Shown piece by piece: positions 4,101 through 63,129 of a stretch of 64,000 bases of DNA. The stretch is taken from assembly GCA_001783215.1 (NCBI GenBank), contig MFRA01000008.1, forward strand, positions 33,312 through 97,311. The letters run 5' to 3'. Position numbers and translations under genes: made by a program. Each line of letters begins with the position of its first letter. Position 1 is the stretch's first letter. The stretch is from Candidatus Magasanikbacteria bacterium RIFOXYD1_FULL_40_23. GTDB taxonomy: Bacteria > Patescibacteriota > Patescibacteriia > Magasanikbacterales > GWA2-37-8. The notes beneath the pieces were generated by a model that worked only from the letters and a program-made list of their open reading frames with translations, searched no databases and had not been told where the DNA came from.

Positions 4101-4454
4101 AGAGATAACGATATGCTCCTGCTCGGGAGTATGTAACCTAAAATTTATATGATTCCATAATGAAGACCAGGCTTGTTCCCAAATTTGGGACTTTACTGTT
4201 GCGGCACAGCGAGGGGATTGAACCCTACTTCGACAGTACGGAATATTTTGAAAGGACTAAGTATAAGTTTACCGGGGAGTAAAAATAATAGCAAGAGGAT
4301 TTTTTAACAAAAAACCACTCCAATTGTGTTGGGGTGGTTTTTACTTCATTGGGTACCATTATTTATGATATTCATTGAAATGGGCCAACTGCGTACGGGC
4401 AGTTGGCGGGCTTACGCGTCGCTCTTCTCCGTACAGAAGAGTTGGTGTGGGGCG

Positions 4455-5231
4455 CTAGAGCACGTGGCTCGTGCTCGCGTGCTTGGGGCTCGTGACCTCG
4501 GGCGGCGGGGTGGCGACCGTGGACTCGGCGGCCTCGGTCTGCTGCTCGGTCGGTCGGGTCGTTGGGCGCTGGGACTCGGTCGGGTTGTCGTAGCCGCGGC
4601 CGTCGACGTTACGGAGCAGGTCGTCGAGACCGTGGCCGCCGCCGAGATCGAACTCCATCGTGATGTCGCCGCCGAAGATCTGGCCGAGGAAGTTGCCGAT
4701 GCCGGACTCGGATCCCCGGAGGATCTGCATGTCGATCGGCAGTCGGGTCGCCCGGATCTGCTTGAGCGCCCAGATCGCGTCCATCGGCTTGACCTTGCCG
4801 CTCATCACCAGATCACAGGCGATCTCGATGCCGAACGAGAAGGAGTCGATCGGGTTGAGGAGGCTCTCGAACGGGTCCAGGCCGCGGAACTTGAAGTGGC
4901 CGTGGTTCCCGTTCTTGCACATCACGAAGTTCTCCGTGCTGCGCTGGTAGTCGCGCGGGAGGCGGAACTTGTCCACCTGCCTGGCGACGTCGGCGATGCC
5001 GCTCACGAGGCGCGCGTACTCCGTCTGCTTCTGGATCTTGGCCGCGGTCTCGAACGAGATCTCGCCGGTTGCGGACAGGGTGCCCAGGCACAGGCGGGCG
5101 TCGTCCTGGGTCAGGACGGCGATCTGCTCCTCCATGCCAGCCACGATGATGAGGCCGGAGGGCAGGCGCAGCATGCTGGTGAGGCCGTTGTCGTCGCGGA
5201 GGAAGGTGCCGTTACGCATGATCTTCTTCAT
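4455..5231 (-). CDS. hypothetical protein on a very GC-rich, compositionally foreign insert
   Basis: Coherent 258-aa ORF on - strand; the + strand ORFs across 4326..5324 are antisense artefacts typical of GC-rich DNA; canonical SD GGGAGA 7 nt before ATG; Pro/Thr/Glu-rich C-terminal tail; only weak local resemblance (STENFVMCKNG) to proteasome-beta-type segment, not assigned. Confidence 0.6.
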   Translation of the reverse strand: MKKIMRNGTFLRDDNGLTSMLRLPSGLIIVAGMEEQIAVLTQDDARLCLGTLSATGEISFETAAKIQKQTEYARLVSGIADVARQVDKFRLPRDYQRSTENFVMCKNGNHGHFKFRGLDPFESLLNPIDSFSFGIEIACDLVMSGKVKPMDAIWALKQIRATRLPIDMQILRGSESGIGNFLGQIFGGDITMEFDLGGGHGLDDLLRNVDGRGYDNPTESQRPTTRPTEQQTEAAESTVATPPPEVTSPKHASTSHVL

Positions 5232-5442
5232 CAGATTGTCTCCCGAGTCAGCATCCGTTCTTGCGAACGTCCCCTAGTATGCTGCTCAAATTTGTTGTTA
5301 TGTCGGGGAAGAAGCACTTTTTAAATAAAGTAGCTTTTTTCCATACACAACTTGTATATTTGTCTATAAAAAATAAAAACGTCTTTGCGACGTGTCATTA
5401 TAGTATAAATTTTTTGTTTTGTCAAGAAGTGGGTGTTGGTTT

Positions 5443-29039: not shown

Positions 29040-29381
29040 ATGAAGTTAATCCTTCGTTGGCTAGTTAGCGCCGTTACATTGATGTTGGTCGCTTATTATA
29101 TCCCAGGCATTGTGGTAGAGAATTTTTATTCAGCCGCCATTGCCGCCCTTATATTAGGCTTAATCAATGCGCTTATCCGCCCACTTCTTATTTTGCTTAC
29201 TTTACCAATTAATATTTTGACTTTGGGTTTGTTTACTTTGGTAATAAACGCCCTTATGTTCTGGCTGGCATCTTCTATTGTAAAAGGCTTTTACGTCGTT
29301 GGTTTTTGGCCAGCTTTTTGGGGCGCCCTTATTATGTGGCTCGCTAGTTGGTTGGTTAGTTCATTATTTAAAAAAGACTAA
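29040..29381 (+). CDS. small 4-TM membrane protein (phage-holin-4-like family)
   Basis: Topology and length; degenerate leader-repeat palindrome gtaggggctaaagccgcatat follows at 29385. Confidence 0.45.
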   Translation: MKLILRWLVSAVTLMLVAYYIPGIVVENFYSAAIAALILGLINALIRPLLILLTLPINILTLGLFTLVINALMFWLASSIVKGFYVVGFWPAFWGALIMWLASWLVSSLFKKD

Positions 29382-30243: not shown

Positions 30244-30639
30244 ATGGCTAAAAAATTTGGTGCTCCAGGCAATTTAGAAACGTTTGGATTAAGACAGGAA
30301 GAGACAATGAGTAAGGCAGAAAAAGCAATGGTAACAGAAAAGGCTGTAGAAGCTTTACTCGGAAATGCAGAAGAAAGAGATAGTGCTAAAAAACAAATGG
30401 TTGATTTTTTTGGCACGGATCAAAATAAGCAGGATTTATTAAAGTGGGCCTCAATGGATAGCCATTTTAAAGGCATTGTTTCTTTGTGTGAAAAGTATGC
30501 GGGCAAAGATGATAAATCTGATTTGGTGCGTAATTTATCGGTATTGGGCATTAAAGACCAGGAGGTGTTAGATAATCTTTTTAGTGTTGTTTTCGAAAAT
30601 AAAGAATTAGGTGTGTCAAAACAGAAGATAAAAAAATAA
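30244..30639 (+). CDS. hypothetical soluble protein
   Basis: 131-aa ORF, charged. Confidence 0.4.
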   Translation: MAKKFGAPGNLETFGLRQEETMSKAEKAMVTEKAVEALLGNAEERDSAKKQMVDFFGTDQNKQDLLKWASMDSHFKGIVSLCEKYAGKDDKSDLVRNLSVLGIKDQEVLDNLFSVVFENKELGVSKQKIKK

Positions 30640-30666
30640 CCACCTTATATTATTTAGTAATTAAAA

Positions 30667-30712
30667 AACTCGTCATATGCGCCTTGCGCAATTGCAAGGT
30701 ATATGACGAGTT
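30667..30712. terminator. nested perfect hairpin (aactcgtcatat ... atatgacgagtt with inner ccttgcgcaattgcaagg) at edge of GC-rich insert
   Basis: Read directly; bidirectional terminator-like. Confidence 0.55.
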
Positions 30713-30732
30713 GACGAAAGAGCGTTGTGGTT

Positions 30733-31236
30733 TTAGCGGTCGTTGCGCTGCTGGTGTTGCAGTGCTCCGAGTTTGGCCAAGCGCTTGGTCTGACGACGCT
30801 TGGTCGTGGGGCGGCTCCAGAGCTCGGTATTGCCGCGCTTGACGCCGGCGCGGTGGCCGTGGCGTCCATGCGTGTCGTAGCCCCGGTTCTTGTTCTTGCC
30901 GATGTCCAGCCGGCTCTCCCAGAGCTCGAGGGCTTCGTCGAAGCGGTTGGTTGCTTCAGTGTCGGTGTGGTCTTCGGCCACGTCCCAGAAGCGCTCATCG
31001 TCCTCTTCGGACTGGCGGCGCTGGCTCATGTCCGCGTACGCTCGTCCGAGCAGGTACTCGCCATACTCCGTCCAGGTTTCACCCCAGTTGAAGTTGGTGA
31101 GATGCGTGTGGATCTCCTTCTTGATGGTAGCGCTCAGATACTTCTTGGGCGTTTGCAGTAGGAGCTTGAGCTGGTTGTAGATGCCGTCCCGGAAGGCCTC
31201 CATCTCATCTTCCATTCGGGCACGTAGTGAAAGAGA
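30733..31236 (-). CDS. hypothetical charged protein on second GC-rich foreign insert
   Basis: Coherent - strand ORF; GGAGAAG SD-like before ATG at 31236; ORF track extends to 31338 through AT-rich native DNA, so start uncertain; + strand ORFs 30727..31161 and 30890..31180 are GC artefacts. Confidence 0.5.
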   Translation of the reverse strand, partial: SLSLRARMEDEMEAFRDGIYNQLKLLLQTPKKYLSATIKKEIHTHLTNFNWGETWTEYGEYLLGRAYADMSQRRQSEEDDERFWDVAEDHTDTEATNRFDEALELWESRLDIGKNKNRGYDTHGRHGHRAGVKRGNTELWSRPTTKRRQTKRLAKLGALQHQQRNDR

Positions 31237-31344
31237 CATCTTTCTTCTCCAGCGTTCGTTGTTGGGCGCCAATACAAGCGTGTTGTAATGGGTCATAAAT
31301 CGACTGGTAATAATAGCACAAAATAGGTGTTTTGTCAACAGGTC

Positions 31345-31552
31345 TTGACAGCGGTCTTTAAGCAGTGTATTATGTCTCTAACCATAGACAGCAGGTGTCC
31401 CACTAGGGATCTAATTAGCCAGCTACGCCACAATTCGTGGTTTAAGCCAGGTAGGCCTGCCGAGGTACAAATAAGGGCGCTTAAGCCTGTTCAGGTCGAT
31501 TTGTACTAGTTGTTAGTCTGTGGAATACACAGATTTTTTGTTTTAAAAAAAT
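31345..31552 (+). promoter_or_regulatory. rplJ promoter (TTGACA-17-TATTAT) and structured L10 leader
   Basis: Consensus -35/-10 at 31345-31373; 180-nt GC-richer structured leader typical of L10(L12)4 autoregulation; ORF 31327..31509 inside is spurious. Confidence 0.5.
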
Positions 31553-59750: not shown

Positions 59751-59825
59751 GTTCTAAAGAGGTTCGAGGTGTACGTATAGATACGCAATAAAAGAATTTG
59801 CCGTCAAAGAAAAACTTGAAATCGT

Positions 59826-59933
59826 CAAAAAGCGCACCGGTGGGCGGGCGGAATTCCTCCCCCAACCCCTCCTTCCGCCCGTCCCGTTATTGGGCCCCCA
59901 TAAATTCCCCTCGTAATTTTTCGTATCCCCGCT
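59826..59933. repeat. inverted-repeat B, right copy
   Basis: Reverse complement of 55964-56070; ORF 59754..60371(-) and ORF 55932..56186(+) share peptides only because they read through the repeats and are spurious. Confidence 0.85.
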
Positions 59934-60026
59934 GCGATATCCTAAATGGCTATAATAGCCATTTTTTGGTTCTAATATTGACAGGTATTCAGAATTACAG
60001 TATAACTTGCCCCAAGGAGACGCACC

Positions 60027-60464
60027 ATGTCTGAGCCAGAAAAAAACACTGCAAAATATTGCTATTGCGGAAGGCGCCATGAAACGGATGAACAGGTTCA
60101 ATCCTGTCAGTTGCTGGGCATACCTACTCCGCGGTATTTGAAGGGGGAGCAGATCCAATTCTGGGGAGGTGAGCTCATGCACAAGGCTACTATCCTTGAG
60201 CTTCAAGCGGTACGAGATCCAGACTCGGATTATGATCCTCATAATGATCCGATTTACTATTTGGTCGAAGTGCATGATGGGCACAGACCATACTGCGTTG
60301 TAAGTGAAGACGATCCGTCCCGCCCTATCACAGAGTATGATGTTGATGGTATTGTCGGAAAAATTGGTCAAGACGACCTACTGGTCAAACCACCGCAGGT
60401 GGAACGGGTGTGTTCCTTCGAGGAGCGCAACAATATTTTCGATACTGTGGTGCGCGCTGCTTAA
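60027..60464 (+). CDS. Cys-containing hypothetical protein in monocistronic cassette
   Basis: TTGACA-17-TATAAC promoter, AGGAGA SD, hairpin terminator at 60484-60505; GC higher than native genes. Confidence 0.5.
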   Translation: MSEPEKNTAKYCYCGRRHETDEQVQSCQLLGIPTPRYLKGEQIQFWGGELMHKATILELQAVRDPDSDYDPHNDPIYYLVEVHDGHRPYCVVSEDDPSRPITEYDVDGIVGKIGQDDLLVKPPQVERVCSFEERNNIFDTVVRAA

Positions 60465-61928: not shown

Positions 61929-62129
61929 ATGACCAGCGATTACGAGAGGACTGTAATTAACCCCGGTGACCTTGTTTCCAAGATGGGGTATAAAGCATGC
62001 GTGGGGAGCTATGGCAATTCGCGGGCCGTATTGATTACCCCTCAGCCCGAGGGTAAGTTTCGTGGTTTGGTTGGCCACAGGTGGAACGATCATGTTTCTG
62101 CGTGCCATGCTAGACAAGCGGGTTGTTGA
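61929..62129 (+). pseudogene. possible N-terminal fragment of the PurM-like gene (frame 0) with strong SD
   Basis: GGGAAGGAG SD then ATG 61929; frame differs by +1 from 62062 ORF and overlaps it by 68 nt. Confidence 0.3.
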
Positions 62130-63129
62130 AACAACCCAGAATGATGGCGCTGGCGGCAAGCCGCAGTTCTTTACTTTGGTGGGAACCCCAGAGGCATTTC
62201 GTATGCTGGGTTGGGAGGTTATTGTCATGTGCAATGATGATGTTGCTTGTGGCGGCGGTTTGCCCGTCGTCTTCTCGAGCAATCTAGATATCAAAGAGAT
62301 TACGGCCGAGAACCTGCACTTGTGTGAAGCGTTGATGAGTGGATTTGCCAAGGCGCTTGCCGCCTCTGGTACGGTGCTGATCACTGGTGAGACGGCCGTG
62401 ATGCGACACAGCATTACCGCCTTCTGCGATCGCAGTAATCCTGCGCAGCTCATCGTGAACTGGGCAGGAACGTGTTTGGGCCTTATGCGAACGGATAGAC
62501 CGCCGAACGGTTCTACCATTCGTCCTGGTATGGCGGTTGTTGGTTTGGGTGAAGATGGTTATCGTTGCAATGGCGGTACCGCTCTCACCAACCTGCTTTT
62601 GCAGACTTGGGGACCGCGTATTGAAGACGTGCTGGCAAGCCAAGAAGCGATGGAGTTTGCGAATCAGCTTGTGATTCCTTCACGAAGCTATGCAAGAATG
62701 CTTTCGTATCTTACCGGTTGGCAAAACAATGGCATTCCCGGCGATCCGGTTGCGCGCATTCACGGAATGGCGCACATAACGGGTGGTGGCGTGTGGAACA
62801 AGTTTCGTGAACTGCTTCCGGTGGGAGTGGGTGCGAATTTGCACAACATGCTAAATCCTCCCGAGGTTCTGCTTCGTGCTCAAGAGCTAAGTTATCGACT
62901 TGGTGGCGAGAAAGTTATTACCGACAAGCAGTGCTATGGCACATTCCACGGTGGGTGTGGTGCGTTGTTGGTAGTGGATCCGCAAGATGCAGATTTGGTT
63001 TGTTGGGAAGCGTCTAATTTTGGCCATAGAGCCACGGTTGTGGGCGAGACCACAGAATCTATCGGTAATGAGGTTGTGATTCAATCTCGTTTCCTTCGAG
63101 GCAAATTGCTTTCTTCTCTTCACGAGTAG
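62062..63129 (+). CDS. PurM-like (AIR synthase related) protein
   Basis: Aligns by eye to E. coli PurM: VIVMCNDDVACGG vs VAMCVNDLVVQGA, TGETAVM vs GGETAEM, AHITGGG vs AHLTGGG; GTG start in ORF track. Confidence 0.65.
   Translation: MVWLATGGTIMFLRAMLDKRVVETTQNDGAGGKPQFFTLVGTPEAFRMLGWEVIVMCNDDVACGGGLPVVFSSNLDIKEITAENLHLCEALMSGFAKALAASGTVLITGETAVMRHSITAFCDRSNPAQLIVNWAGTCLGLMRTDRPPNGSTIRPGMAVVGLGEDGYRCNGGTALTNLLLQTWGPRIEDVLASQEAMEFANQLVIPSRSYARMLSYLTGWQNNGIPGDPVARIHGMAHITGGGVWNKFRELLPVGVGANLHNMLNPPEVLLRAQELSYRLGGEKVITDKQCYGTFHGGCGALLVVDPQDADLVCWEASNFGHRATVVGETTESIGNEVVIQSRFLRGKLLSSLHE

Follow-up and report, generated by a model that had tools for sequence, protein, structure and literature searches.

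A GC-rich orphan gene beside rplJ keeps its deviant codon composition across species of a small Parcubacteria clade

We analysed a 64,000-nucleotide (nt) stretch of Candidatus Magasanikbacteria bacterium RIFOXYD1_FULL_40_23 (GenBank assembly GCA_001783215.1, contig MFRA01000008.1, positions 33,312 to 97,311 of the forward strand), referred to below as the window, with positions counted from its first nucleotide. The window has a GC content of 38.9% and exceeds 60% GC at two sites only, 4401-5200 and ~30720-31250. The second site, which is the subject of this report, holds one gene on the minus strand in the slot between an amino-acid kinase (AA-kinase) gene and rplJ (Table 1). An initial annotation of the window, made from the letters alone, had described a segment of about 60% GC with a 168-amino-acid (aa) minus-strand gene and a GGAG-type Shine-Dalgarno sequence; both were confirmed, the gene having 60.6% GC and GGAG or GAGG standing in the same place in the orthologues. 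Comparison of this gene with its relatives shows that the preference for GC-rich codons belongs to the gene itself and has stayed stationary over evolutionary time.

The sigma-70 promoters predicted for the GC-rich gene and for rplJ lie back to back, each matching the consensus at 11 of 12 positions, and the promoter of the GC-rich gene is of host type. Stem-loop 1 (SL1) of the leader begins at about +1 of the predicted transcript, giving a leader of ~60-65 nt. Across 7 orthologous leaders and 12 base pairs, 94.8% of cells were paired, against 23-53% when the partners were slid; both-sided changes occurred in 6 of the 12 pairs, and the observed covariation score was reached by 0 of 500 shuffles, which for seven sequences gives moderate support. 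The public gene call starts instead at an in-frame ATG at 31296 and yields a 187-aa protein; as this upstream ATG has no ribosome-binding site (RBS), lies inside SL1 and is not conserved in the comparison loci L007, L010, L033 and L034, we took MSLSL as the start. In the terminator the outer arms (30667-30678 and 30701-30712) are complementary at 12 of 12 positions and enclose an inner stem (30682-30687 and 30694-30699); folded as RNA the hairpin has -25.2 kcal/mol (z = -6.0). It is nested, as described earlier, and falls short of strictly perfect by a small internal loop. The orthologues have a common layout, namely TTGACA-17-TATnAT, a leader of ~60 nt, GGAG or GAGG, a protein start M-S-(L/M/F)-S and a GC-rich coding sequence (CDS), and a nested hairpin with a T run stands 3' of every orthologous CDS, with stem sequences that vary between species. 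Judged from these signals, the gene is a self-contained predicted transcription unit from promoter to terminator, which bears out the earlier picture of a single-gene unit with a nested hairpin terminator on one side and the rplJ promoter on the other. Its small conserved leader RNA, adjoining the L10 leader of rplJ, is undescribed. The L10 leader itself matches RF00557 with 42.1 bits (E 3e-5), just below the Rfam gathering score of 44, so that it is missed by a default scan; at its end stand a hairpin resembling a terminator (31515-31535) and then a T run.

Table 1. Features of the GC-rich transcription unit and its rplJ side, in window coordinates
Feature	Position	Strand	Description
Promoter of the GC-rich gene	31310..31338	-	TTGACA, 17 nt, TG-n-TATTAT; 11/12 consensus plus extended -10 TG; consensus match only
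5' leader, two stem-loops	31269..31304	-	SL1 31292-31304, SL2 31269-31291; covariation
Shine-Dalgarno GGAG	31247..31250	-	7 nt 5' of ATG
CDS	30733..31239	-	168 aa plus stop, start MSLSLRARMEDEME; open reading frame, periodicity, conserved amino-acid motifs, omega (ratio of nonsynonymous to synonymous rates)
Intrinsic terminator	30661..30712	-	Nested hairpin, outer 12-bp and inner 6-bp stem, then U6
rplJ promoter and L10 leader (context, outside the unit)	31345..31548	+	Promoter 31345-31373; leader 31364-31548

GC content in 300-nt windows over 30650-31249 is 56-64%; it goes up right at the stop codon of the gene and down again within the first ~15 codons, so that the excess is concentrated in the CDS. 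The GC contents at the three codon positions (GC1/2/3) are 0.62/0.41/0.79, and the GC3 lies 8 standard deviations above that of 46 long host open reading frames (ORFs; 0.346 +/- 0.056, z = +8.0), a significant deviation in composition. Relative synonymous codon usage (RSCU) correlates negatively with that of the host (r = -0.46): CTC/CTG, CGC, GGC, AAG and GAG are favoured, AGA is absent, and the product has an Arg:Lys ratio of 19:11 where those of neighbouring genes have 4:28, 3:19 and 6:20. Avoidance of a specific RNase or restriction motif was rejected as a cause, since words containing TA are depleted generically and GATC and TCGA are enriched. Strong three-base periodicity (GC3 > GC1 > GC2) was found in the 168-aa frame only. 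Because this periodicity coincides with amino-acid motifs conserved among relatives and with an omega of ~0.2 at saturated synonymous divergence (see below), the comparison shows 30733-31239 to be a protein-coding gene, as far as sequence evidence goes.

A search of 5.8 billion proteins matched the gene itself and one relative with 64% identity. A HMMER profile search against 1.84 billion cluster representatives yielded six genuine members, and two more came from a second search with a profile. The family, of fewer than 10 members, is new, undescribed and clade-restricted: no relative outside the Parcubacteria clade was found among the 5.8 billion and 1.84 billion proteins, none of either GC-rich gene of the window turned up in phages, plasmids (tblastn) or IMG/VR, no homologue turned up in GC-rich surroundings, and two scans of JGI metagenomes found nothing. 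The RplJ of the window is 85-94% identical to that of Parcubacteria-group (Patescibacteria) metagenome-assembled genomes (MAGs). The MAG records for L007, L008, L010-L012, L016-L018, L020 and L025 carry the title 'uncultured Gammaproteobacteria bacterium' or 'Candidatus Udaeobacter sp.'; their RplJ is 48-94% identical to the Parcubacteria RplJ of the window, and these taxonomy labels look mislabelled or placeholder.

Synteny could be read where the contig was long enough. In L005, L007, L009, L010 and L033 the homologue occupies the interval from the AA-kinase gene to rplJ and is encoded on the strand opposite rplJ; of the two ~1-kb contigs, L035 has rplJ-leader sequence directly upstream of the gene and L034 is too short for context. 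The gene is absent in L008 and L011-L016, where the AA-kinase gene and rplJ are 250-620 bp apart, and it is thus an insert, as had been proposed, in the sense of an addition to a variable slot. The slot comparison, which took in L005-L016 and L033, marks the slot as a hot spot of small lineage-specific genes: it holds unrelated ORFs of 129, 63, 174, 180 and 94 aa elsewhere and nothing in four genomes. No repeats flank the gene except the terminator hairpin, and no mobility genes are present; the neighbours are housekeeping genes, and there is no tRNA gene within 5 kb. In a tree of concatenated AA-kinase (AAk), RplJ and RplL sequences, carriers fall in both major sub-clades, a patchy distribution that implies either an ancestral gene with losses or spread within the clade. 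The relationships of the copies in the pairs L009 and L033, and window and L005, are congruent with the species tree. L009 also carries, beside its GC-rich copy, a 97-aa paralogue of the N-terminal domain (4374-4667, minus strand; hhalign probability 96.5%, E 8e-10) with its own promoter and terminator, at 38% GC and GC3 0.43; the fold itself therefore needs no GC-rich coding. The window slot also holds a 131-aa ORF (30244-30639, plus strand) with 28-33% identical counterparts in L005 and L007.

All eight members have a GC3 of 0.68-0.84, in surrounding loci of 38-45% GC. Protein identity among members is 25-63%, and 44-67% of 4-fold sites differ between distant members, which amounts to synonymous saturation. 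Between the sister pair L009 and L033 the numbers of substitutions per synonymous (dS) and nonsynonymous (dN) site are 1.34 and 0.28 for the GC-rich gene, 1.47 and 0.09 for AAk, and for rplJ and rplL 0.59 and 0.41 (dS) and 0.03 (dN). The nonsynonymous rate of the gene in this pair is 3-9x that of its neighbours, with an omega of ~0.2 (0.6 for window and L005), by which measure the gene is under purifying selection, and despite the synonymous turnover the two copies have GC3 of 0.72 and 0.75. We estimated decay from ~0.67 substitutions per synonymous site per lineage since the L009/L033 split and ~2x that to the root of the clade (scaled by AAk dN). This simple estimate predicts a GC3 of at most ~0.5 at clade depth even from a 100% start; the observed range is 0.68-0.84. 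Changes between window and L005, polarised with four outgroups, comprise 13 AT-to-GC, 10 GC-to-AT and 6 GC-to-GC. Bacterial mutation is in general biased from GC to AT (PMC2936529). A sequence relaxing to 35% GC should show the opposite of this 13:10 pattern. GC3 is also lower over the first 15 codons in most members; relaxed composition at the gene start is expected of a translated gene and is the usual sign of selection for an open initiation region (PMC3964316). Expressed as log-odds, the GC3 excess over host genes is 1.4-2.0 for this gene and 3.7-4.2 for the other GC-rich gene of the window; the former corresponds to a population-scaled bias (selection or conversion coefficient times population size) of equal size. 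No description of persistent GC-rich genes in AT-rich or Candidate Phyla Radiation (CPR) genomes was found in the searchable literature, which is weak evidence of absence.

The other GC-rich gene, 4455-5231 (minus strand, 258 aa, 66% GC), has a GC3 of 0.95, 10.9 standard deviations from the host, and shows the same phenomenon a second time and in more extreme form. Its single homologue (L006 1705-2445, from a sample in the same sequencing series as L005) is 62% identical, has a GC3 of 0.97 and lies beside greA as in the window. Between the two, 1 of 71 two-fold sites differs, against 34-37% in the flanking genes, and changes between C and G number 8 against 11 to A/T in all, so that A/T at third positions must be strongly disfavoured. 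By the Nei-Gojobori method (NG86) dS is 0.20, dN 0.22 and omega 1.1, where GreA has a dS of 1.07 and a dN of 0.06. The substitutions are clustered in patches, and the 5' and 3' untranslated regions (UTRs) are ~90-95% conserved with hairpins present (flanks 4385-5330). An AlphaFold2 model of the protein was unusable (predicted local distance difference test, pLDDT, 37). Directly after greA, at ~5365-5425 (minus strand), a perfect TTGACA-17-TATAAT promoter match runs straight into a hairpin with a GCAAA loop and then a T run, an arrangement conserved in L006; either the terminator of greA overlaps a promoter here, or the transcript of 4455-5231 has an attenuator-like beginning.

The style that the initial annotation saw in common between the two GC-rich segments (4385-5262 for the first) is real: both have structured leaders and hairpin terminators, and RSCU of 30733-31239 and 4455-5231 correlates with r = 0.78, both standing at about -0.5 against the host. 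The suggestion of a shared donor could not be borne out. The two proteins are unrelated by sequence comparison, and the correlation follows from both genes being GC3-rich and reflects the same GC pressure only; no donor can be inferred for either gene. The tails encoded at 30733-30900 and 4455-4650 (both minus strand) share the words RGYD, HGH and RPTT[KR], and the tail DNA contains similar strings (GGCTACGAC; CGCCCnACGACC); BLASTP between the tails gave E = 0.13, which may be chance in low-complexity tails.

The protein of 30733-31239 consists of an acidic, helical N-terminal domain (residues 1-113, isoelectric point (pI) 4.6) and a basic tail (residues 114-168, pI 12) that is predicted with low confidence, is likely disordered and carries the HRAGVKRGNTELWSRPTTKRRQTKR motif. 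AlphaFold2, run with a seven-sequence alignment, gave a mean pLDDT of 66, with 72-89 for residues 11-80 and low values in the tail. A Foldseek search of this model against the PDB found nothing below E 0.8, and Pfam, NCBIfam, PHROGs and PADLOC had no match for either GC-rich gene, in line with the earlier remark that no motif could be assigned. A tail motif HRxGxKRxKTxLWxRPxPTRR occurs in 6 of 8 members. The tail is dispensable in L005 and is replaced in members P0006 (L034 458-934) and P0010, which have an alternative conserved C-terminus (...GLPGxNNFGxPNKIEQKMFxAELxxxVEDGHRQRQLRDWT). As no hidden frameshifted tails were found in L005 or L034, the swap without frameshift marks the tail as modular. 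A likeness of the tail to bS21, seen by eye, was dropped after no ribosomal-protein family emerged from Pfam or PDB profile searches. Within residues 131-155 (30775-30850, minus strand) KR-x10-KRRQTKR agrees with the classical bipartite nuclear-localisation pattern; it is probably no more than a basic RNA-binding tail, but the match would be notable if such bacteria associate with eukaryotes.

Deviant composition is what a recent, unameliorated horizontal import from a high-GC donor would leave, and this may be the sense of the foreign composition in the initial annotation, with a donor perhaps common to the 4385-5262 segment. The codon usage is indeed that of a high-GC organism (CTC/CTG, CGC, GGC, AAG and GAG favoured, no AGA, Arg over Lys), the gene is absent from outgroups and patchy in the clade, and the RSCU of the two inserts agrees (r = 0.78). 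The deviation itself stands (z = 8.0, RSCU r = -0.46), but its recency does not, as the orthologues keep a GC3 of 0.68-0.84 without decay. Orthologues sit at the same site with the same host-type promoter, leader and terminator, and all remain GC3-rich although they are 25-63% identical with saturated synonymous sites; GC-to-AT changes are not in excess (13 vs 10 in the other direction); searches of 5.8 billion and 1.84 billion proteins found no homologue beyond the clade; L009 has an AT-rich paralogue; the two insert proteins are unrelated; and neither mobility genes nor flanking repeats are present. Recent import is strongly disfavoured on these grounds, and we consider it improbable. That the contig is an assembly chimera, or contaminated by a spliced-in fragment of a GC-rich organism, is hardly credible. 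The composition does switch abruptly, in metagenome-derived sequence, but the identical protein lies on 12 contigs with the same junctions, four of which were inspected and come from different samples and assemblers with 99.9-100% identity to the window (too few differences for a population test among these independent contigs), and orthologous GC-rich genes fill the same slot in MAGs of other species. We judge it very improbable as well that the segment is no protein gene at all and instead a GC-rich structured RNA or a DNA element (barrier or insulator) beside the rplJ operon, with the ORF as a by-product. GC-rich DNA yields long ORFs in several frames, and no domain, fold or function could be assigned to the product. 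An antisense ORF of 144 aa (30727-31161) is an example of such a frame; we rejected it as a gene, since it arises from the lack of A-ending codons and is unconserved, with only 57 aa in L010. The three-base periodicity, however, is confined to one frame, amino-acid motifs are kept at saturated synonymous sites with omega ~0.2, RBS and start codon are conserved, folding is unremarkable (z = -1.0 sense, -1.6 antisense), and Rfam finds the neighbouring L10 leader only.

The main rival is frequent exchange of a cassette among related Parcubacteria by recombination through conserved flanks, with biased gene conversion, in which mismatched heteroduplex is repaired toward GC, or another local AT-to-GC mutational process driving both the GC content and the fast protein evolution. 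The GC content itself would then need to confer no benefit. It would account for the incongruence of the gene tree with the species tree at L007 and the window, for highly conserved flanks around a divergent CDS, for raised dN with omega of 0.6 (window and L005) and 1.1 (first insert), for amino-acid usage moved toward GC-rich codons and for the clustered substitutions in the first insert. It does not readily explain why the GC excess coincides with the extent of the CDS and leaves out its first ~15 codons, why L009 with L033 and the window with L005 agree with the species tree, or why the former pair shows ordinary purifying selection (omega ~0.2). It would also need log-odds of 1.4-4.2, beyond what is familiar from GC-biased gene conversion (gBGC) in bacteria; we know of no bacterial report of an effect as large. 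For these reasons we regard it as unlikely, though clearly less so than import.

The reading that we favour, with moderate confidence, takes the segment for an accessory gene native to a small Parcubacteria clade, in which it has been retained vertically, and not for a fresh import, because related species keep the GC-rich gene at the same site through synonymous saturation. The bias would be kept by selection on the coding part of the message, since it ends where the CDS ends on either side and is weaker over the first ~15 codons. In the mechanism that we prefer, 5' stem-loops, a U-poor GC-rich body (13% U) and a strong 3' hairpin would together make for an abundant message, which would resist A/U-preferring RNases, or an RNase toxin, acting on an otherwise AU-rich transcriptome; put more generally, the favoured force may be nuclease resistance or special handling of the mRNA. 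The product would pair an acidic four-helix domain with a very basic tail. From the HRxGxKRxKT motif and the position adjoining rplJ, it is probably nucleic-acid-binding, and rRNA is a possible target. A wider proposal, which we put forward tentatively and think rather doubtful, is that this clade has a class of unrelated, fast-evolving orphan genes, comprising at least 30733-31239 and 4455-5231, held at extreme GC3 by selection on the message, so that composition would be a functional signal; the product of 30733-31239 may in addition be an eL29-tailed accessory ribosome- or RNA-binding protein. Such mRNAs might be immune to an A/U-directed RNase or toxin, and they might survive or go on being translated while the AU-rich bulk of the transcriptome is shut down (dormancy, phage attack, host contact).

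Several observations weigh against the native-gene reading or its parts. The window comes from a sister species of L007, with housekeeping proteins 87% identical, yet their copies share only 25% identity (33% pairwise), an incongruence with the species tree that hints at allele replacement. The polarised substitution counts for window and L005 are small. UTR GC of the gene is 0.43-0.48 against 0.36 in non-ORF DNA, a mild rise only, and the mRNA fold is not more structured than shuffled controls (z = -1.0). The adjoining ribosomal protein genes have GC3 of 0.31-0.35 without such codon bias, so the GC-rich codon choice is not general translational selection or ordinary tRNA adaptation. As to the product, the basic tail motif is missing in 2 of 8 members. 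All 13 matches at E < 1 of the tail profile against the PDB were eL29 chains, and the match is not significant (E 0.23-0.8 for single-copy chains, 0.014 for a tandem-fusion chain); Pfam Ribosomal_L29e (PF01779) had no match at E <= 10 in any of the 8 members.

We compared the gene with several known systems. The tail reads H-R-x-G-x-K-R/K-x-K-T where the eL29 signature is HRNGIKKPKT, and the L009 member has HRNGIKRDKT; the tail region is very basic with low prediction confidence, and the GC-rich gene adjoins rplJ-rplL. The match spans ~10-19 residues only, however, the acidic N-terminal domain has no eL29 counterpart, and the motif stands at the C-terminus of a 160-200-aa protein here but in a short, very basic protein in eL29, which to our knowledge occurs in eukaryotes only. 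We treat the likeness, seen in sequence, as a lead for RNA or ribosome binding and do not count the protein among the eL29 family. Orphan genes that deviate in composition and sit in variable slots are familiar, and the gene resembles 'alien' ORFan genes or genomic islets in being a single gene with deviant GC and codons, no assignable function and a patchy occurrence in a variable slot. The unusual part is a composition that persists in orthologues, twice in one genome: unlike in such ORFans, the deviation here outlasts synonymous saturation without decay, no donor or relative outside the clade was found, the promoter is host-type, neither mobility genes nor repeats are found, and one genome (L009) has an AT-rich paralogue. 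Like gene-specific codon bias under mutation, selection and drift in highly expressed genes, the bias is stationary, limited to the CDS and weaker at the gene start, and we judge its log-odds of 1.4-2.0 (3.7-4.2 for the first insert) to lie within or above the range for strong codon selection. It differs in running opposite to the genome bias and in sparing the adjacent ribosomal protein genes, with Arg exceeding Lys. The leaders of ompA, ermC and aprE are 5'-terminal stem-loop stabilisers of mRNA, and share with the leader described here a short conserved hairpin at ~+1 with compensatory changes, joined here by a strong 3' hairpin; there is no sequence relationship, and the transcript start here is predicted from the promoter only. 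Hot spots of gBGC likewise combine a local GC3 excess with faster amino-acid change and hints of allele exchange, but the excess here is bounded by the CDS and its magnitude is far above that of the bacterial cases known to us.

Elsewhere in the window, two further ORFs have a moderately raised GC3: 62092-63129 (plus strand, GC3 0.52) encodes an AIR-synthase-related protein (PF00586, PF02769) and looks like a conventional transfer candidate, and 59754-60275 (minus strand, GC3 0.53) has no Pfam match. A 113-aa protein with four transmembrane segments (29040-29381, plus strand; Phage_holin_4_2, E 3.5e-37) is encoded in the midst of housekeeping genes, and relatives have it too.

A deviant GC content is routinely taken to date a horizontal transfer as recent. 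In this genome of 39% GC two unrelated genes have GC3 of 0.79 and 0.95, and for 30733-31239 the orthologues show the deviation outlasting synonymous saturation, so that composition alone misleads. In practical terms, a new protein family (fewer than 10 members) and a conserved small leader RNA are defined. If a force of log-odds 1.4-4.2 indeed acts in small-genome episymbionts, these genes would be a tractable natural case for the role of synonymous composition in the message, one that could separate RNase resistance, special translation and biased conversion, and they would point to conflict-type accessory genes as a class hidden so far in CPR bacteria.

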